Assembly: GCF_003008425.1 (NCBI RefSeq)
Contig: NZ_PXOQ01000007.1
Coordinates: forward strand, 456,419 to 520,418
Direction of reading: 5' to 3'
Origin: Aurantibacter aestuarii
GTDB lineage: Bacteria > Bacteroidota > Bacteroidia > Flavobacteriales > Flavobacteriaceae
Length of the DNA: 64,000 nucleotides
Under the pieces are notes generated by a model. That model did no database searches. It had not been told where the DNA came from and saw only the letters and a program-made list of their open reading frames with translations. The position numbers and the translations under genes were made by a program. Shown one piece after another: positions 29,447 to 47,190 of the stretch (the first letter of the stretch is position 1; each line of letters starts with the position of its first letter).

Positions 29447-31162
<1,716 letters not shown>

Positions 31163-31206: not shown

Positions 31207-31260
31207 TATACTAATTAGAAGTACTTGTTTCTAATTACTCTGCAAATATTAAGCAGTTGT

Positions 31261-31280
31261 GTGCAATGTTTTTGCGTACT
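31261..31280. promoter_or_regulatory. Conserved dyad motif, site 1 (GTGCAATGTTTTTGCGTACT), upstream of rtcB
   Basis: One of three near-identical GCAAT-RTTTTT-GCGTA sites; about 110 bp upstream of the rtcB start. Confidence 0.55.
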
Positions 31281-31373
31281 GAATTTTTTATTTAAAAATT
31301 GTGTTTAATTACATCTGAAACAAGCTTATAATAATGTAAACACTTTGCGAGAATTACTACGTAAGCGATTGAT

Positions 31374-31444
31374 GCGGTATCCTTTTGTTTTTTTGCAAAA
31401 GATTTAGCGGAAAGCGTAACCCAAACTTTTGTTTGGGTTACGCC
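31374..31444. repeat. ~70-nt repeated element, copy A (GCGGTATCCTTTT...CAAAAGATTTAGCGGAAAGCGT + 13-bp hairpin)
   Basis: Shares GCGGYATCCTTTTT ... CAAAAAGATATAGCGGA ... GTAACGCC with copies at 41510 and 47120. It also serves as the terminator hairpin after the SPFH gene. Confidence 0.45.
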
Positions 31445-31450
31445 ATACTA

Positions 31451-32551
31451 TTACTTATTTACAGTAAACATATGTTTTAATTGTTCCAAGGTGTTTCCAT
31501 GGTTTCCAACCGTAATTTCGCCTACTTTTTCTGCAATTTTCTCTACATATTCCATTTCTTTCAACTTGAATAACATGCTGTTATCTTCCATTAATTTTGC
31601 GGTATTTAACAAACTTCTTGTGGAAGCGGTTTCCTCACGTCTGGTAATAACATTGGCTTGCGCCTTTTTTTGTGCTACTAAAACCTGATTCATGATTTCT
31701 TTCATGTCTCCTGGCAAAATAACATCTCTAATTCCTGTGTTTAAAACAGTCACACCTAATTTCTTGGCTTGCTCAGTTACTTCAGTTAAAACTGCGTTAG
31801 AAATACTTTCTTTTTGCTCTAATAATTCGTCTAAAGTATAAGCGCCAACATAGGCTCTTAACTTTAATTGTAAGGCAATATATAATTGCTTTTCGTACTC
31901 TTTATTTTGCATTAATGCGGTTTCAATGTTTACCACTTTGTACTGCGCATAAAAGTTAATTCTAATAGTAGCTTTATCTTTTGTTAACAATTCTTGACCC
32001 GAAATTTCTAATTGTAACTGACGTAAATCTGCTTTTGCAATTTTAATGGTTTGATTATTTCTCCAATAGTAATAGGTTCCTGCGCCTAATGTTTTTTGAT
32101 ATTGGTCGTCTATAATTAAAACTGCTTTTTCAAACGCAGAGACTTCAAAAACTCTGATGTATGCTTTTAACGATGCATGATTAAACAAGCTTTTGTTAAT
32201 ATCTTCGGTGATTTCAATGTTATTTAAATCTACTGTGGTAAATTTATAATTGATTAATCCTTTCCAAAAAACATGTCTTCCTGCAGTTAAAACGGTTTTA
32301 AAATTGTTGTTTTCGTACATTAAAACAATTTCGTTATCCTTAACTTCTACAACCTCTAACATGCTAGATAAATTAGAATCTTTAAGTAAGATTTCTAAGG
32401 TTATAGGTGTTTTAAATGAGTGCGACATTGTATAGTTTAAAACACGTTTGTTAAAATTTAACCAATGTGTTCCTTCAGTAATTACGCGTTTATAATTATT
32501 GTTTTTAAATACTAATCCTACAAATCCTGAGTTAATTCTTACTCTTTTCAT
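31451..32551 (-). CDS. Soluble SPFH/band-7 (stomatin/prohibitin-like) protein with triple N-terminal repeat
   Basis: C-terminal SPFH signature (TIRINFYAQYKV...LGVTVLNTGIRDVILPGDMKEIMNQVLVAQKKAQANVI). Three ~55-aa N-terminal repeats centred on YKRVITEGTHW / FKTVLTAGRHVFW / YQKTLGAGTYYYW; no TM segment. Confidence 0.75.
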   Translation of the reverse strand: MKRVRINSGFVGLVFKNNNYKRVITEGTHWLNFNKRVLNYTMSHSFKTPITLEILLKDSNLSSMLEVVEVKDNEIVLMYENNNFKTVLTAGRHVFWKGLINYKFTTVDLNNIEITEDINKSLFNHASLKAYIRVFEVSAFEKAVLIIDDQYQKTLGAGTYYYWRNNQTIKIAKADLRQLQLEISGQELLTKDKATIRINFYAQYKVVNIETALMQNKEYEKQLYIALQLKLRAYVGAYTLDELLEQKESISNAVLTEVTEQAKKLGVTVLNTGIRDVILPGDMKEIMNQVLVAQKKAQANVITRREETASTRSLLNTAKLMEDNSMLFKLKEMEYVEKIAEKVGEITVGNHGNTLEQLKHMFTVNK

Positions 32552-32830
32552 TTGATTCTAATTTTTGTTCTGTTTCTATTTTTAATACAGAACTATTAAA
32601 CATTTATAATAGAATTACCAGTTACGATAATGACTATTCTTTGTAAACAAAGCGCTTAAATGCATTGTTATTACTACGGAAATTCGGCTTATTTTAGCTT
32701 TATATGAATTGTTTTGTAGATGATTAATAAGCTATTAACATGATGTTTTAAACTTAAAAATGAATCTTTTAAAGAATCCATAAAACAGCTTTTAATAATG
32801 CTGAATTTCAAGGTGTTTTCCCAATTGCTA

Positions 32831-32867
32831 AAAGTGTTAGCACGTTTTTAAACACTTTGCTTTTTTT
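32831..32867 (+). terminator. Orphan terminator-like hairpin in an ORF-free region
   Basis: AAAGTGTT-N12-AACACTTT stem followed by GCTTTTTTTGCC; no plus-strand ORF upstream. Confidence 0.3.
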
Positions 32868-33001
32868 GCCATTTATTGTGTGACGCACAAGGGATCTATT
32901 TTTTAAAGTTGATCTTCTTTCCTAAAGTTGGATTTTGAATCCATTTCAATTGCTGTAACCGAAATACAGTGCGTTTGCCAATTTCGCCACAAACCGAAAA
33001 C

Positions 33002-33072
33002 TCGGTTTGGTAGGACTCGAACCTACAAATTGATCTATTGCTTAACCAGACTTAGCTACTTCAAGTTAATGA
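33002..33072 (-). pseudogene. tRNA 3'-half-like fragment A (T-arm plus 3' acceptor strand, no matching 5' half)
   Basis: Reverse complement GTAGGTTCGAGTCCTAC-CAAACCG-A is a canonical T-arm and acceptor 3' strand, but no complementary 5' acceptor strand lies within 100 nt. The adjacent hairpin CAAACCGAGTTTTCGGTTTG folds back on it. Confidence 0.45.
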
Positions 33073-33132
33073 AGGCAGGATTCGAACCTGCGTACATAGA
33101 ATTGATTATTATTTGGCTAATAACCGTAGCCT
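33068..33132 (-). pseudogene. tRNA 3'-half-like fragment B
   Basis: Reverse complement ...GCAGGTTCGAATCCTGC-CTTCATT-A has no 5' acceptor partner. A 64-nt mini-structure closed by GAAGGC/GCCTTC lacks a D-arm. Confidence 0.4.
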
Positions 33133-33223
33133 TCAAGTCAAGTTGAACATAAAAACGTAATACAAACTGTGACGGTTTATGCAATGGTGTTATATTGAAA
33201 CACCTAACAAGACCTGCTTGATG

Positions 33224-33306
33224 TGGAAGTAGTAGGACTCGAACCTACAAGCTTAAAAAAGACCAGATTTACAGTCTGGCGAGCCAACCAATTGCTCAAT
33301 ACTTCC
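33224..33306 (-). tRNA. tRNA-Tyr (anticodon GTA), type II with long variable arm
   Basis: Reverse complement GGAAGTATTGAGCAATTGGTTGGCTCGCCAGACTGTAAATCTGG...GTAGGTTCGAGTCCTACTACTTCC; 7-bp acceptor stem, anticodon loop CTGTAAA. Confidence 0.8.
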
Positions 33307-33316
33307 ATTTAATTTG

Positions 33317-33389
33317 TCTGAGAAGCAGGACTCGAACCTACAACCTCTCGCATCCAAAGCGAGCAAACATCCAATCGTTATCTTCCCAG
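33317..33389 (-). tRNA. tRNA-Pro-like (anticodon TGG), C1:G72 start, A37
   Basis: Reverse complement CTGGGAAGATAACGATTGGATGTTTGCTCGCTTTGGATGCGAGAGGTTGTAGGTTCGAGTCCTGCTTCTCAGA. Acceptor stem 7 bp with one G-U, anticodon stem CTCGC/GCGAG, loop TTTGGAT. The D-stem has only 3 bp and position 37 is A rather than G, so treat with caution. Confidence 0.55.
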
Positions 33390-33503
33390 TTTTATGTTAA
33401 TGAACTTTTTTTAACTCCACTAGTGTTCTTAACTAGTGGAGTGACTACCATTGTTTAAATTAAAAAGACTTCTTTCTAATTACTTTACAAATATTTTACT
33501 CTT

Positions 33504-33523
33504 TTGCGCAATATTTTTGCGTA
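33504..33523. promoter_or_regulatory. Conserved dyad motif, site 2 (TTGCGCAATATTTTTGCGTA), upstream of the tRNA cluster and downstream of the TPR/prfH operon
   Basis: Same GCAAT-RTTTTT-GCGTA core as sites 1 and 3; about 115 bp upstream of the tRNA-Pro 5' end. Confidence 0.5.
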
Positions 33524-33544
33524 GTGTAATTTATTTTGAAAAAA

Positions 33545-34090
33545 TTATTTCTTTTTCTTATTCCACTTATTCTTAGGATTCTTTTTTTTACACTTTTTAG
33601 AAGCGTTTGCCTTAATTTTAGCTTTAACTCTAGATATTTCAGAATCTATGAAACTTGTAAAATCATTGTTATAAGCAACTTGTTTGGCAGTTTTAAAAGA
33701 TTTCAACGCTTTTTTGTAATGTTGCTTTTGTTCTAGTAACTGATCATTTAAAACCCAAATTTCGGATTTACTTAAGCCTTTTACCGTAAATGCAAATTCT
33801 ATTAATTGTTGCGCTTCTATAAAATCTTCGTTCCAAAGTAACACTTGAATATAGCTGCTGTAGACTTTATGAAAATCTAACTTAATGGATAGTACTTCGG
33901 CGTAATACTGCTTTGCTTTTTCGTAATCTCCAAATTGTTCTGCTTGTAACTTTCCCATTAAAAACAGTGCATGTATATTATCTTCTTGATAAGACAATGC
34001 GTAGTTTAAATTCTCTACGGTTTCTTCTAAATCGTACGGATAAGCATCTAATGCTTTCAGTACGTAGGTGTTTAGTATGTTGGTTTCCAC
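33545..34090 (-). CDS. TPR-like helical protein with lysine-rich C-terminal tail; GTG start translationally coupled to prfH
   Basis: 181 aa with TPR-like helices. Its GTG start lies 2 nt after the prfH TAA stop, and it ends in the K-rich tail KAKIKANASKKCKKKNPKNKWNKKKK. Confidence 0.6.
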   Translation of the reverse strand: METNILNTYVLKALDAYPYDLEETVENLNYALSYQEDNIHALFLMGKLQAEQFGDYEKAKQYYAEVLSIKLDFHKVYSSYIQVLLWNEDFIEAQQLIEFAFTVKGLSKSEIWVLNDQLLEQKQHYKKALKSFKTAKQVAYNNDFTSFIDSEISRVKAKIKANASKKCKKKNPKNKWNKKKK

Positions 34091-34092
34091 GA

Positions 34093-34806
34093 TTATTTTA
34101 ATTTTAGTTGCTTTTGCAATTCAGTTTTTAGTTTTCCACGTTCTTTTTTGAACGTTTTGTCTTTTTTCTGAATTTTAAAATCCGAGCCTTTAAATACTTT
34201 TGTTGGCTGACCTCTTTTTATATTTAAGTGGTTTTCCCATTGATTTTTAATGCTCGACTTTAAGCGCTTTGTTTGTGTTTGATTGACTTTTTCAATCAAC
34301 CTAATTTTCGCTAATTTTTTGTTTTGATGTTGAGATCTGCTATCCATTACCAACACTTGCGTATTGGTTGGTTTATGCGTTGCTCTAATTGCAGAACTTA
34401 CTTTGTTTACATGTTGTCCGCCTGGACCAGAACTTCTTGTGGCTTGATATAAAATGTCTTTATCTGCTATATCTGAGCCGTATATTTGCTCAATTTCATA
34501 AATACCTATAAACCAGTTTTTACGTTTGTGTTTTGGTCTATATGCAGATACGCCAATCCATTGAATTGTTCCTAGCCACTTGCTTAAAAATGTGGTTAAA
34601 TTAGTTCCTGAAATTTGCACAGTTGCCGATTGTAATGTGCCATTTTCTACGCCTGTTTCGCGCTGCAAAATGCTGTATTCAATAGTTTTTAATTTTGCGG
34701 CTTCTAAAAATAATTTTAGAACTTGAGCTACAACCCAACAGCATTCTGCAGGTCCGCGACCAGATGTTATTTGTATTATTTTAGTTTTTGTTAATGACTT
34801 TGCCAT
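34093..34806 (-). CDS. prfH: Peptide chain release factor H homologue (PrfH; RF2-like, lacks domain 1) with extra K-rich tail
   Basis: GGQ motif RSSGPGGQHVNKVSSAIRATH. The N-terminal domain (GRGPAECCWVV..., WLGTIQWIGVSAYRPKHKRKNWFIGI) follows E. coli PrfH, recalled from memory: [34 protein letters not shown]. There is an added ~25-aa lysine-rich C-terminus. Confidence 0.85.
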   Translation of the reverse strand: MAKSLTKTKIIQITSGRGPAECCWVVAQVLKLFLEAAKLKTIEYSILQRETGVENGTLQSATVQISGTNLTTFLSKWLGTIQWIGVSAYRPKHKRKNWFIGIYEIEQIYGSDIADKDILYQATRSSGPGGQHVNKVSSAIRATHKPTNTQVLVMDSRSQHQNKKLAKIRLIEKVNQTQTKRLKSSIKNQWENHLNIKRGQPTKVFKGSDFKIQKKDKTFKKERGKLKTELQKQLKLK

Positions 34807-35138
34807 AATATTTTATCTTCTAAAAGCTCTAGTAAAAGCTGGTGTTTCAAACGTTTTAAAAGTGCTTTTGGTTTTTTATTACAACCACAAACCTCTGTAA
34901 TTTTAGTTTTGTATTTTAAATTACATGTTGCTCTAGAGGTTATCTAAAAACAAGTTTGCTGTTATGTTAACGATTCCAAGAAACGCTTCTAATTAGGAAT
35001 CAAGGTTTAAATGAATTTGATATAATTCATGATTGATTTTATTTAAAATGAAGCGTGACATTTAGTCTAAACGCAACATGGGTTGTTTTTACTACTGTTT
35101 AGGAATGTGTTTAGCAGAGTTGCTAAGGTTGAAAACAA

Positions 35139-35176
35139 AAAATCCGAAACAGTTTTTTAATTGCTTCGGATTTTTC
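35139..35176. terminator. Bidirectional intrinsic terminator (AAAATCCGAA-N16-TTCGGATTTT)
   Basis: 10-bp perfect stem flanked by A/T runs on both sides; most likely terminates the minus-strand 201-aa gene. Confidence 0.55.
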
Positions 35177-35367
35177 ATTTGTTTATGAAAGTGGTATTAA
35201 CTAAAATACGCTCGAAGCACCGCAGAAGGAATACGTCCTTTTGGGAAATCTGGATATGCTATAGAAATTATCATACTTCGAGTTTTTATTATTAATTTTT
35301 TCTTTGGAAATTTTTATTTCCGCTGGGCAAAGATTTGTTTTTATTTTTGAGTTATCAAAATTTATTT

Positions 35368-35973
35368 TCAATTTTTTTTAAAAAGTAATGCCTTAATACG
35401 AAGTATTAACTTTTTTTGAATTGTGCAAATTTTATTTTTATTTTCCACCAAGGTAAATGCTGTTTTGGGTTTTGAGTTGTTTAAAAAATATAATTTTATC
35501 GATTTTAAGTCTTCTAAACTATTCATTAAATTGAGCGTTGTATTCGAAAGCTTTCTAACTTTATTTATCAATTCATTTTTATTAATAATAGTAAATTGAA
35601 AATTTTCAAAATCTTCTCTTAATAGATAAAAATCCCATAGTATATCATATTCAGTTTGATAGTCAAAACACTCTAATAAAACATTTAAATGTAAATAAGC
35701 TTCATCAAAATTATTTGCTTTACTCAGTTTTTTACAACCTTCGATTAGTTTAAAAAATATCATAAAATCTTCACCATGTTTTTCATTAGTGACCTGCAAT
35801 AATTTTTTACTCCATTCATCATTACTATAATTTATGGTAAAAAGATCAAAATAATATGGATTCGAGTCTAGATTAGATAATAATTCATCATTAGTATACA
35901 ACCAATTTTCAAATTGGGAAACTGTTATTCTTTCGGTTAAAACATCAAATATTTTGTATTCTAAAGCTTTCAT
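35368..35973 (-). CDS. Hypothetical protein (no recognisable domain), divergent from the WYL regulator gene
   Basis: 201-aa ORF with coding-like composition. A shared dyad motif sits exactly mid-way in the 93-bp divergent intergenic region. Confidence 0.5.
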   Translation of the reverse strand: MKALEYKIFDVLTERITVSQFENWLYTNDELLSNLDSNPYYFDLFTINYSNDEWSKKLLQVTNEKHGEDFMIFFKLIEGCKKLSKANNFDEAYLHLNVLLECFDYQTEYDILWDFYLLREDFENFQFTIINKNELINKVRKLSNTTLNLMNSLEDLKSIKLYFLNNSKPKTAFTLVENKNKICTIQKKLILRIKALLFKKN

Positions 35974-36006
35974 CTGCTGTAATTTTATACAAAAATGAAA
36001 TGCCCA

Positions 36007-36025
36007 TACGCAATGTTTTTGCGTA
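36007..36025. promoter_or_regulatory. Conserved dyad motif, site 3 (TACGCAATGTTTTTGCGTA), perfect 7-bp inverted repeat
   Basis: TACGCAA-N5-TTGCGTA centred in the 35974-36066 divergent intergenic region. It overlaps a TTG-N18-TATTTTAG promoter-like arrangement facing the WYL gene. Confidence 0.6.
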
Positions 36026-36066
36026 CTAGTTATTTTTTCTATTTTAGAAGTGAAATTAATTGAAAA

Positions 36067-37788
36067 ATGGCTGTAAATAAAAACGCACTTTTAAGATATA
36101 AAACCATAGATAAATGTTTACAAAACCATTTCAAAACATGGACTTTGAACGATTTAATTGAAGCTTGTTCCGATGCTTTGTATGATTACGAAGGAAAAGA
36201 TGTAGATGTTAGTAAACGTACGATTCAGTTAGATTTACAGATGATGCGTAGCGATAAATTGGGTTATAATGCGCCAATTATTGTTTACGACCGAAAGTTT
36301 TATAAATACGAAGACGAGAATTATAGTATTACCAATAGCCCAATTTCTAATCAAGATTTAAATAAGTTATCTGAAGCAGTTTCGTTTTTAAAACAATTTC
36401 AAGGATTTTCGCATTTTTCGGCTTTAGATAGCATGGTTCAGAAATTAGAAGATCACGTTTACACGCAGAAAACCCAAGAGAAAGCACTTATAGATTTTGA
36501 AAAAAATGATAACCTAAAAGGCTTCAACTTTTTAGATGAATTGTATCGCTACATACAAGTTAAAAAACCAATAAAACTAACTTACAAATCGTTTAAAGCT
36601 AGAGAGAAAAGCACATTTACTTTTCATCCTTATTTGTTGAAAGAGTTTAGAAACAGATGGTTTATTATAGGTCGTAAAAACTCTAATGTGGCACTTTTAA
36701 ATCTAGCATTAGACCGTATTGTTAAAATTGAAGAATCTGCAGACGAATTTATTTACAACACCACTTTTAATTTAGAAAATTATTACAAAAACGTGATTGG
36801 TGTTTCTGTAAGTCCTACTATAAAAACCGAACATATTTTACTTTATGTTACTCATAAACATGCGCCATATGTGGTGACAAAACCGTTTCATTCGTCTCAA
36901 AAAATTGTTGATAAAGATAATTATGGGATCACTATTTCTTTAGATGTACAACATAATTTTGAACTTGAAAAAGAGATTTTATCTTTAGGTGATGGCATTA
37001 AAGTGTTAGCGCCAAAACGTTTAAAGGAAACCATTAAAGAACGTTTACAAGAAAGTGTAGACACGTATAATACTGAATTAGACTTAAAAGAGTTAACTCT
37101 ATTAAAAAAGCAGGTTTTACATAAAGGATTTTCGGTTTTAAATCAAGTGTATACCAAACGTGAGATTAAGAAAATTAAGGGTAAACTTCACATGTATTTA
37201 AAAAATAATCCTGGTAAAACGTATAGCTTACGTGAAGTGTTTTTAAGGCTACCACAGTTAAAACCTTTAGTAATTAATAAAAATTTAAAGCAAATTATTG
37301 ATAGTTTATTACCAAACGCTTTTCTAACTAAAGTGATTTATTTTGATAAAACCATACAAGATAATTGGTACGTGACATGGCATCAAGATTTACCCGTAAA
37401 TGTAAAAGATAAAATTGAAACTGATGGTTTTACTTCTTGGACTAAAAAAGAAGACGTTATTAGTGTTATTCCACCTGAAGCTATAAATAAAAACACAATT
37501 AGTATTCGTGTACATTTAGACAATACAAATTCAGAAAATGGTGCTTTAAAAGTAATTCCGGGTTCGCAAAACAAACGCTTAACAGATACTGAAATAAAGT
37601 TAATTATAGATAATTCTTTACCTTTTGATTGTGAAGTGAATTTAGGAGGAATTCATATTTTAAAACCTCAAATTTTACATGCGTCTTCTAAAAACAAAAG
37701 CGGCAAACGCAGACGCGTTTTACATTTGGAATTTTCTAATTTGGATTTACCAAATGGTTTGGAATATGCTGAAAAAGTAGATCTTTAG
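36067..37788 (+). CDS. HTH-WYL-WCX transcriptional regulator fused to a C-terminal PhyH-like Fe(II)/2-oxoglutarate dioxygenase domain
   Basis: N-terminal DeoR-type HTH (VSKRTIQLDLQMMRSDKLGYNAPIIVYDRKFYKYED). WYL domain (IKLTYKSFKAREKSTFTFHPYLLKEFRNRWFIIGRK...LALDRIVKIEE). WCX-like segment (HILLYVTHKH...GDGIKVLAPKRLKETIKERL). The last ~170 aa carry the PhyH facial-triad motifs TWHQD ... GALKVIPGSQ ... LHASSKNKSGKRRRVLHLEF. Confidence 0.75.
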   Translation: MAVNKNALLRYKTIDKCLQNHFKTWTLNDLIEACSDALYDYEGKDVDVSKRTIQLDLQMMRSDKLGYNAPIIVYDRKFYKYEDENYSITNSPISNQDLNKLSEAVSFLKQFQGFSHFSALDSMVQKLEDHVYTQKTQEKALIDFEKNDNLKGFNFLDELYRYIQVKKPIKLTYKSFKAREKSTFTFHPYLLKEFRNRWFIIGRKNSNVALLNLALDRIVKIEESADEFIYNTTFNLENYYKNVIGVSVSPTIKTEHILLYVTHKHAPYVVTKPFHSSQKIVDKDNYGITISLDVQHNFELEKEILSLGDGIKVLAPKRLKETIKERLQESVDTYNTELDLKELTLLKKQVLHKGFSVLNQVYTKREIKKIKGKLHMYLKNNPGKTYSLREVFLRLPQLKPLVINKNLKQIIDSLLPNAFLTKVIYFDKTIQDNWYVTWHQDLPVNVKDKIETDGFTSWTKKEDVISVIPPEAINKNTISIRVHLDNTNSENGALKVIPGSQNKRLTDTEIKLIIDNSLPFDCEVNLGGIHILKPQILHASSKNKSGKRRRVLHLEFSNLDLPNGLEYAEKVDL

Positions 37789-41418: not shown

Positions 41419-41509
41419 TAAGTTGAGCTTTACATTTAACCAACTCAAATGCAACATCTTAATTCATAGAAATAACTAGCACTAAATTAAAGTCGCGTTA
41501 AGGATGGAA

Positions 41510-41582
41510 GTGGTATCCTTTTTTTGCTTTAGCAAATGGCAAAAAAGATATAACGTACAGCCTGACCCGCAGGGTAACGCCC
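41510..41582. repeat. ~70-nt repeated element, copy B
   Basis: GTGGTATCCTTTTTTT...CAAAAAAGATATAACGT...GGGTAACGCC, preceded by a hairpin AAGGAT...ATCCTT and a T-run. Confidence 0.45.
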
Positions 41583-47087: not shown

Positions 47088-47119
47088 TTGTTTCTCATAA
47101 CTCAGCAAAAACGATAGTA

Positions 47120-47190
47120 GCGGCATCCTTTTTGGGCTCTTTTTAGACCAAAAAGATATAGCGGATAGCGTGGTGGCTAGCCATTTGCCC
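47120..47190. repeat. ~70-nt repeated element, copy C
   Basis: GCGGCATCCTTTTTGGG...CAAAAAGATATAGCGGATAGCGT + TGGCTAGCCA hairpin ...TTGCCC. Confidence 0.45.

Follow-up and report, generated by a model that had tools for sequence, protein, structure and literature searches.

We analysed a 64,000-nucleotide stretch of the Aurantibacter aestuarii genome (assembly GCF_003008425.1, contig NZ_PXOQ01000007.1, positions 456,419 to 520,418), hereafter the window, in which genes for an RtcB-family RNA ligase, an SPFH/Band 7 protein, tRNA-Pro, tRNA-Tyr, a TPR protein, PrfH, an orphan protein and a candidate regulator of the WYL family lie close together (Table 1). Three copies of an inverted repeat are placed among these genes, and the repeat, the promoters that contain it and the adjacent regulator are the subject of this analysis. 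The 16-mer GCAATRTTTTTGCGTA, that is GCAAT[AG]TTTTTGCGTA, occurs exactly three times in the window, at 31263-31278, 33508-33523 and 36010-36025, always on the plus strand, which confirms the three copies claimed in the initial annotation of this DNA. When up to two mismatches were allowed there were still three copies as compared with 0.28 expected by chance, and none of 100 shuffles of the window gave three copies. With a weight matrix built from orthologous sites the three sites reached 26-31 bits and the position ranked after them 2.9 bits, no fourth site being detected in the 64 kb; the top score in 20 shuffled windows was 10 bits.

Table 1. Coordinates of the genes, RNA features, promoter boxes and dyad sites in the window
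Feature	Coordinates	Strand	Basis and remarks
RtcB-family RNA ligase with N-terminal DUF6331 (569 amino acids)	29447..31156	-	Pfam RtcB 1.4e-34, DUF6331 1.3e-18; target of site 1
-7 box AATATTTG, RtcB promoter	31243..31250	-	TTTG at the fixed spacing of 13 nucleotides; predicted start G 31238
Site 1, extended dyad AGTACGCA-AAAACAT-TGCACACA	31258..31280	-	core 31260-31278; 26.2 bits; RtcB promoter
SPFH/Band 7 protein	31451..32551	-	Pfam; conserved neighbour, no site of its own in the window
YrlA-like (Y RNA-like) permuted tRNA-like module	33016..33119	-	Rfam YrlA 32.6 bits, gathering score 69
tRNA-Tyr(GTA)	33223..33306	-	ARAGORN; Rfam 57.7 bits
tRNA-Pro(TGG), atypical	33316..33389	-	ARAGORN; Rfam tRNA 27.9 bits, under the gathering score of 29
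-7 box AATATTTG, site-2 promoter	33488..33495	-	predicted start G 33483; conserved leader of 94 nucleotides
Site 2, extended dyad ACTACGCA-AAAATAT-TGCGCAAA	33503..33525	-	core 33505-33523; 31.5 bits; promoter of the tRNA/Y-RNA-like unit
TPR gene	33545..34090	-	conserved neighbour, no site of its own
prfH	34093..34806	-	NCBIfam release_prfH 229 bits, above cut-off; conserved neighbour, no site of its own
Orphan protein (201 amino acids)	35368..35973	-	first gene after site 3; no known family
-7 box CATTTTTG, orphan-gene promoter	35990..35997	-	predicted start A 35985; leader of 12 nucleotides
Site 3, extended dyad AGTACGCA-AAAACAT-TGCGTATG	36005..36027	-	core 36007-36025; 27.1 bits; divergent gap between orphan and WYL genes
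Candidate regulator: winged helix-turn-helix, three-helix linker, WYL, WCX, PhyH (573 amino acids)	36067..37788	+	Pfam and AlphaFold

The repeat had been described as an 18-bp unit, which proved too short: conservation extends over 23 bp, in a dyad whose 8-bp arms are separated by a 7-bp spacer (ACTRCGCA-N7-TGCGYAGT). The core of site 3 is the perfect palindrome TACGCAA-N5-TTGCGTA (7+5+7) that had been pointed out earlier, and site 1 carries one degenerate arm (TGCACA, one mismatch in the right arm). Site 1 is situated 107 nucleotides upstream of the RtcB start codon (ATG at 31156), and site 2 is situated 119 nucleotides upstream of the 5' end of tRNA-Pro and 22 nucleotides beyond the stop codon of the TPR gene, in good agreement with the rough values of 110 and 115 bp and the position just past prfH-TPR given before. 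Site 3 lies within the 93-bp intergenic region 35974-36066 between the orphan gene and the divergent WYL gene. The length of this gap had been stated correctly; the dyad was said to occupy its exact middle and is only near it, at 33 nucleotides from the ATG of the orphan gene and 41 nucleotides from that of the WYL gene. The gene map drawn in the initial annotation agrees with the gene calls of the region.

The matrix derived from 115 orthologous sites gave the consensus AC-TRCGCA-AAAASAY-TGCGYA-GT, in which two 8-bp inverted arms flank a 7-bp A-tract spacer. The arm cores CGC/GCG are invariant, with C3, G4, C5, G15 and C16 present in 115/115 sites and G17 in 112/115. On alignment of the window sites along the minus strand, the similarity extended well past the 18-mer, and an AT-rich stretch was followed by TACGCAAAAAYATTGC(G/A)(C/T)A, 13 nucleotides and then TTTG. 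The Bacteroidota sigma-A -7 box, nAHHTTTG, starts 9 nucleotides after the core dyad, the functional strand being the minus strand. Every position of TTTG was conserved in at least 100 of the 115 sites, A at -11 in 94 and a purine 5 nucleotides past the G of TTTG in 106, and T at -12 was found in only 20 (17%). Among the 126 sites recovered from genomes (see below), TTTG follows at exactly 13 nucleotides in 106 and at 14 nucleotides in about 10 more. In flavobacteria the sigma-A box TAnnTTTG occupies -12 to -5 and ends 4-5 nucleotides before the start site (PMC9723704; PMC6847099), T-12 is nearly invariant in ordinary promoters and the -33 element is generally weak (PMC6847099). As these published maps fix the distance from the -7 box to the start, the start sites listed in Table 1 could be predicted. 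Promoter positions were taken from the maps and not from spacing within the loci, where the -33 spacing gave no peak, the sure promoters being too few. Because the -7 box and the purine follow at fixed spacing, the dyad is placed at about -40 to -22, with its centre at about -31, of the three minus-strand promoters in the window. A TTG at a -33 position is absent from these promoters and the dyad occupies that region. The sites are integral to the promoters, standing in place of the -33 region with a set spacing to the -7 box. The predicted leader of the RtcB transcript is 82 nucleotides long and contains two hairpins. On the other side of site 3, the segment from the dyad to the ATG of the regulator (36026-36066) has an AT-rich pattern with partial dyad symmetry (aAAatTtttTt ... 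tTTTt ... aAAAa) that is conserved in 45 loci; it may represent a -7 box belonging to the regulator gene or an element acting in translation.

The regulator is conserved across Bacteroidota at 40-70% identity. Relatives were located at no fewer than 587 loci (at least this many) in species-representative genomes, and 80 loci were fetched with up to 10 kb on either side of the regulator gene. At a threshold of at least 16 bits by the matrix, 126 sites were present in 72 of the 80 loci, and all of them fell within the 606 kb upstream of the WYL gene, whereas the 637 kb downstream and the gene itself contained none. The orientation was that of the window in 122 of the 126. In 57 of the 80 loci a site lies within 130 nucleotides of the WYL start codon, most often 37-43 nucleotides away, and this site and its distance stay constant while the divergent neighbour varies by lineage (orphan gene, tRNAs, RtcB, Ro60, RlaP or Band7). 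Loci devoid of a proximal site usually have a plus-strand gene ending just upstream of the regulator gene, or a contig end. The site is kept also in the relatives without PhyH domain (loci L074, L077, L079 and L080). The comparison of orthologous loci finds the site conserved phylum-wide, and the linkage together with the proximity to the WYL start supports the proposals that the dyad is an operator of the adjacent WYL regulator and that site 3 holds an autoregulatory position. The motif is neither the common promoter context of this genome nor restricted to it, the two outcomes that would have spoken against such a role, as it is rare in the window (three sites in 64 kb) and conserved across the phylum.

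A metagenome collection was scanned for TRCGCAAAAASAYTGCGYA with no gene used as bait, and 122 matches were obtained in 120 stretches. TTTG stood at 13 nucleotides in 85 of the 122 and at 14 nucleotides in 14 more, and among these 99 a regulon-type neighbour was found in the short fetched stretch in 85 and the WYL gene itself in 54. The 21 matches lacking the promoter architecture came from more GC-rich DNA and only 2 of them had a regulon-type neighbour. As promoter-type matches mostly have regulon neighbours and the others rarely do, the motif is specific to this system and not a general promoter context.

The candidate regulator contains WYL (PF13280; residues 155-222, 4e-10) and WCX (PF25583; residues 256-329, 1.2e-9) domains, both above the Pfam gathering score, followed by PhyH, a 2-oxoglutarate (2OG)/Fe(II) oxygenase domain, at residues of about 400-573. 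The protein is 100% identical to an NCBI entry of A. aestuarii. Pfam matched no helix-turn-helix (HTH) in it. Its AlphaFold model, with a mean predicted local distance difference test score (pLDDT) of 73, comprises a winged HTH (wHTH) at the N-terminus, three linker helices, WYL, WCX and a C-terminal double-stranded beta-helix domain; residues 5-19, 27-42 and 50-61 of the wHTH are helical and residues 71-81 form a beta hairpin, the pLDDT of this part being about 80. The best matches in a fold search were DriD, the DriD-RNA polymerase activation complexes and PafBC-RNA polymerase, and the model could be aligned over the full length of DriD at about 15% sequence identity. The C-terminus matched 2OG oxygenases, and CapW and BrxR were not among the top 50 fold matches. 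A single-sequence search of PDB returned no matches; a profile search returned weak WYL/WCX matches that pointed to the proteins found by fold. Among aligned relatives the DNA-binding N-terminus is nearly invariant and basic residues are conserved in the WYL region, and from the latter and the dyad symmetry we infer a dimer on the palindromic operator whose activity would be controlled by a ligand in the WYL domain. The PhyH triad H439-x-D441...H538 and the arginines R549/R550 are invariant in 15/15 aligned relatives. As the iron triad and two arginines are kept in all of them, this domain is probably an active enzyme, or a sensor of a metabolite, oxygen or iron.

The first open reading frames (ORFs) behind the sites were counted over all loci, where 168 ORFs stood behind 223 sites. 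RtcB was the commonest (75/168), followed by the TROVE/Ro60 protein (19/168), the orphan family (13/168, counting other loci and the window), a family of 600-780 amino acids without Pfam match (10/168), the regulator itself (6/168) and RlaP (6/168), with single cases of Hen1, a T4-Rnl1-type RNA ligase, a PNKP phosphatase domain and DUF2828. In some other loci a Band7 gene is located directly behind a site. Genes for tRNA follow 27 sites of the genome loci, including arrays of 8, 12, 16, 17 and 19 tRNAs, and the array loci are hosted by Psychroserpens and several uncultured Bacteroidia. These gene contents identify a predicted RNA-repair and spare-tRNA regulon. The 600-780-residue family (for example at L155:1355, L105:1362, L157:1983, L046 and L053) is likely a further member. 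It is absent from the window, as are Ro60 and RlaP. Arrays of 8-19 different tRNA genes right behind the motif and beside the regulator gene are seen at L002:3241-5308, L014:2978-4994, L035, L051 and L030.

Site 2 precedes a minus-strand unit (32929-33483) consisting of a two-hairpin leader, an atypical tRNA-Pro, a tRNA-Tyr and one or two permuted tRNA-like modules matching the tRNA-like core of the Y-RNA-like family YrlA, and the unit is conserved in Flavobacteriaceae as a non-coding RNA operon. In the YrlA-like module the T-arm, hairpin and D-arm blocks were matched with the T-arm preceding the D-arm, the module is conserved in the Flavobacteriaceae alignment, and further tRNA-like pieces occur at about 32929-33059 on the minus strand. 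The tRNA-Pro/tRNA-Tyr arrangement is present also in L004, L008, L012, L013, L016 and L062. Matches of 114-140 nucleotides to the tRNA model were noted in related loci (L005:7305-7444, L002:4070-4195 and L016:6439-6552), and the tRNA-Tyr of L005 has an insert of about 56 nucleotides in the anticodon loop that could be intron-like or another Y-RNA-like design.

As WYL regulators with palindromic operators have been characterized elsewhere, we compared the system with those known. DriD of Caulobacter crescentus, a WYL activator of an SOS-independent DNA damage response, has the same order of wHTH, three-helix linker, WYL and WCX. It binds ATACGAC-N7-GTCGTAT with an AT-rich bent centre (PMC10853764), its sites extend over the -35 position and stand equally far from the -10 element in every target, good -35 elements being absent from its promoters; one site belongs to the bidirectional promoter of driD, and DriD activates by recruiting polymerase (PMC13004042). 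The dyad described here resembles this in its two half-sites with TACG core and 7-bp AT-rich spacer, in its placement over the -35/-33 position at a fixed distance from the -10/-7 element, and in the one copy located in a bidirectional promoter with the regulator gene. T-12 is present in few of the sites and a TTG at -33 is missing, which might indicate weak core promoters as in the targets of DriD, but the -33 element is weak in flavobacteria generally and the spacing analysis of the loci gave no signal. The differences are that the DriD regulon consists of DNA damage genes and its ligand is single-stranded DNA, whereas RNA repair and tRNA genes are gathered here, under the Bacteroidota sigma-A with its -7 box and a protein with an extra C-terminal PhyH dioxygenase domain.

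PafBC, the mycobacterial WYL activator of a DNA damage response, has the HTH, WYL and WCX modules in common, and its promoters are not known to carry a -35 element. In the classification of the DriD paper it is a type II activator that binds downstream of the -35 element; it is a heterodimer or fused pair, recognizes an asymmetric element and needs polymerase to bind DNA (PMC13004042). The dyad here is, unlike that element, symmetric, which suggests a homodimer. CapW and BrxR, repressors of phage-defence operons, possess the wHTH-WYL-WCX core and a palindromic operator in the promoter region beside the regulator gene; each represses a single adjacent operon, whereas here several dispersed targets are found with rigid promoter geometry. 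CapW is reported to sense single-stranded DNA (PMC11662680).

In regulon content the closest parallels lie in two systems of RNA repair. The TrcR regulon of Anabaena comprises the trn tRNA array, rtcB, a slipin gene and others and is induced by translational stress, the array being normally silent; hen1-pnkP is induced too and TrcR is autoregulated. In Anabaena, and by prediction here, a promoter motif common to them brings a tRNA array under joint control with rtcB and a Band7/slipin gene. TrcR, however, is a ribbon-helix-helix repressor acting on direct repeats or an 8-bp box over the -10 box and start site, as against a WYL protein and an inverted repeat at -31 in a different phylum, so that only the regulon content is parallel and no sequence relation exists. 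The rsr-yrlBA-rtcBA system of Salmonella and E. coli similarly has a dedicated regulator, RtcR, beside RtcB, Ro60 and Y-RNA-like genes, and its induction by damaged tRNA is a model for the signal proposed below (PMC7790460). RtcR differs in being a CARF-domain sigma-54 enhancer-binding protein that acts from upstream sites, where we find a WYL protein and a sigma-A promoter, and the regulon here holds tRNA genes and possibly prfH in addition.

The best explanation of these observations, and one we regard as probable, is that each site is the operator of the adjacent wHTH-WYL-WCX-PhyH factor within a sigma-A-type promoter that is activated in the manner of DriD. A dimer of the regulator would sit on the two 8-bp arms (ACTRCGCA / TGCGYAGT) across the 7-bp A-tract spacer and, once activated by its ligand, would by analogy with DriD recruit RNA polymerase to promoters that may otherwise be weak. 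In this genome it would turn on RtcB, the tRNA-Pro/tRNA-Tyr/Y-RNA-like operon, the orphan gene and possibly prfH-TPR behind it, and in other Bacteroidota the same site would serve Ro60, RlaP, Hen1, the Pnkp-type phosphatase domain, RNA ligase and long tRNA arrays. The WYL domain, perhaps together with the dioxygenase domain, might sense damaged RNA or translational stress; judging by RtcR, TrcR and DriD, the signal that it binds would be damaged RNA or single-stranded nucleic acid. The regulator probably controls its own gene as well, given the position of site 3 41 nucleotides ahead of its start codon. Taken more widely, a phylum-wide response of Bacteroidota to RNA damage or translational stress can be envisaged, in which a DriD-like WYL activator, often fused to a 2OG/Fe(II) dioxygenase, would perceive damage to RNA and not to DNA and, by way of the 23-bp operator in their promoters, would induce RNA ligases, Ro60 and its Y-RNA-like partners, a release factor and entire sets of spare tRNA genes; this joint proposal is put forward tentatively, as somewhat short of probable.

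Whether the factor activates or represses is the main point to be weighed. A repressor acting through the same protein and operator would block polymerase by a dimer on -40 to -22, and release of this dimer would require a ligand (RNA fragments or single-stranded nucleic acid). The dyad does overlap the polymerase contact region, a site centred at -31 would suit a repressor as well, and in other respects the -7 box is a good one, A-11 and TTTG being conserved, with an AT-rich stretch upstream. The closeness of site 3 to the regulator's start codon suits autorepression, other wHTH-WYL-WCX proteins such as BrxR and CapW are repressors (for CapW, PMC11662680), and in the functionally parallel cyanobacterial regulon TrcR represses the tRNA array, rtcB and the slipin gene. 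These points weigh against activation. Three others weigh against the best explanation as a whole: the spacer is asymmetric and always in one orientation, which a symmetric homodimer alone does not explain; the missing -33 element says little because this element is weak in flavobacterial promoters generally; and binding of the regulator to the sites is deduced from sequence comparison and analogy. Repression is nevertheless unlikely in our judgement. Repressor operators usually vary in position, whereas the spacing to the -7 box is rigid before many unrelated targets and all sites stay clear of the -7 box and the start site, and T-12, nearly invariant ordinarily, is missing from most of these promoters. 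In the fold search the activators DriD and PafBC came out best, with the repressors CapW and BrxR outside the top 50, and the geometry and position of the sites copy those of DriD. The rigid spacing before many different genes, the missing T-12, and a fold, geometry and position matching the WYL activator DriD lead us to favour ligand-dependent activation by analogy, with a modest degree of confidence.

It is highly improbable that the dyad is bound by a different, unlinked factor and that its nearness to the WYL gene reflects shared regulation instead of autoregulation. Such a factor is allowed by the fact that the link between site and WYL protein comes from comparing sequences, and regulon members such as Ro60 occur also away from the WYL gene. 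Yet, whichever divergent neighbour is present, the distance to the WYL start is mostly 37-43 nucleotides throughout the phylum, the arm cores hardly vary and neither does the DNA-binding N-terminus of the protein, and no other DNA-binding protein recurred beside the sites, though no systematic gene census was made. Least credible of all is that the dyads are intrinsic terminators of the plus strand, the -35-like part of promoters read by an alternative sigma factor, or sigma-54 promoters. A simple scan flags all three dyads as plus-strand terminators (7-8-bp stem, 5-nucleotide loop, T-rich tail), and two of these hairpins fold better than shuffles; no plus-strand gene, however, ends upstream of any site, and the arms are invariant and do not covary, the non-pairing A.C being the commonest state at two stem positions (43/115 at positions 2/18 and 52/115 at positions 7/13). 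The terminator reading was rejected on these grounds. The sigma-54 consensus has GG at -24 and GC at -12 (TGGCAC-N5-TTGC) and is used for rtcBA in enterobacteria, and the CG-N10-GC spacing of the dyad resembles its GG-N10-GC. This reading was also rejected, as CG takes the place of the invariant GG in 115/115 sites, and a sigma-A -7 box stands at a constant distance, 17 nucleotides after the TTG. Dyad symmetry would not be expected of a sigma-factor element. A plus-strand promoter, with TRTTTTTG in the dyad as the -7 box of an RNA motif named Flavo-1 (31355-31425), was likewise discarded because Flavo-1 is generic and lies on either strand elsewhere and because the genes ahead of sites 1 and 2 are convergent, with their 3' ends towards the sites.

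WYL regulators with a palindromic operator of the DriD type are already known, as is the co-regulation of a tRNA array with rtcB and slipin by TrcR; new here are the type of regulon for WYL factors, the phylum, the operator and the unusual dioxygenase fusion. No description of this regulator, operator or regulon in Bacteroidota was found in the searchable literature, to which one relevant comparative survey of RNA repair did not belong, and the same literature yielded nothing relevant linking WYL with RtcB, RNA repair, Ro60/Y RNA or Bacteroides. The system bears on how bacteria beyond proteobacteria (RtcR) and cyanobacteria (TrcR) turn on RNA repair and on why some genomes hold extra, normally silent tRNA arrays. 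It offers a testable handle in a major phylum with gut and marine members, namely a 23-bp operator and a candidate regulator in at least 587 species-representative genomes, with a predicted regulon uniting RtcB, Ro60 and Y-RNA-like RNAs, RlaP, Hen1/Pnkp, prfH, Band7 and tRNA arrays. If the proposal is true, the range of the WYL family, hitherto DNA damage and phage defence, would extend to RNA damage, and the regulator would count as the first of its family linked to RNA repair and as the first tRNA-array switch to be defined outside cyanobacteria. The fusion of a transcription factor with a probably active dioxygenase is itself unusual.

The remaining genes of the neighbourhood deserve brief mention. 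No matrix match was found upstream of prfH-TPR or Band7 in the window. The prfH-TPR genes are possibly transcribed from site 3 through the orphan gene and the Band 7 gene may be transcribed by read-through from site 2; alternatively, both may be under separate control. The orphan protein had no Pfam or NCBIfam match and the three homologues found for it were too few for a useful model. The 560-bp gap between prfH and the orphan gene (34807-35367) has a hairpin at 35139-35176 that resembles a bidirectional terminator, and neither a site nor a gene could be recognised in it. In RtcB of the window DUF6331 spans residues 3-97, and in L003 a similar domain is encoded as a separate small ORF directly behind a second copy of the motif. 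The Flavo-1 copy mentioned above is a sub-threshold match on the plus strand between the Band7 stop codon and site 1. Full copies are present at 41487-41571 and 47095-47179 on the plus strand, and Flavo-1 follows Band7 also in L005, L008 and L010; it appears to be a generic repeated element.

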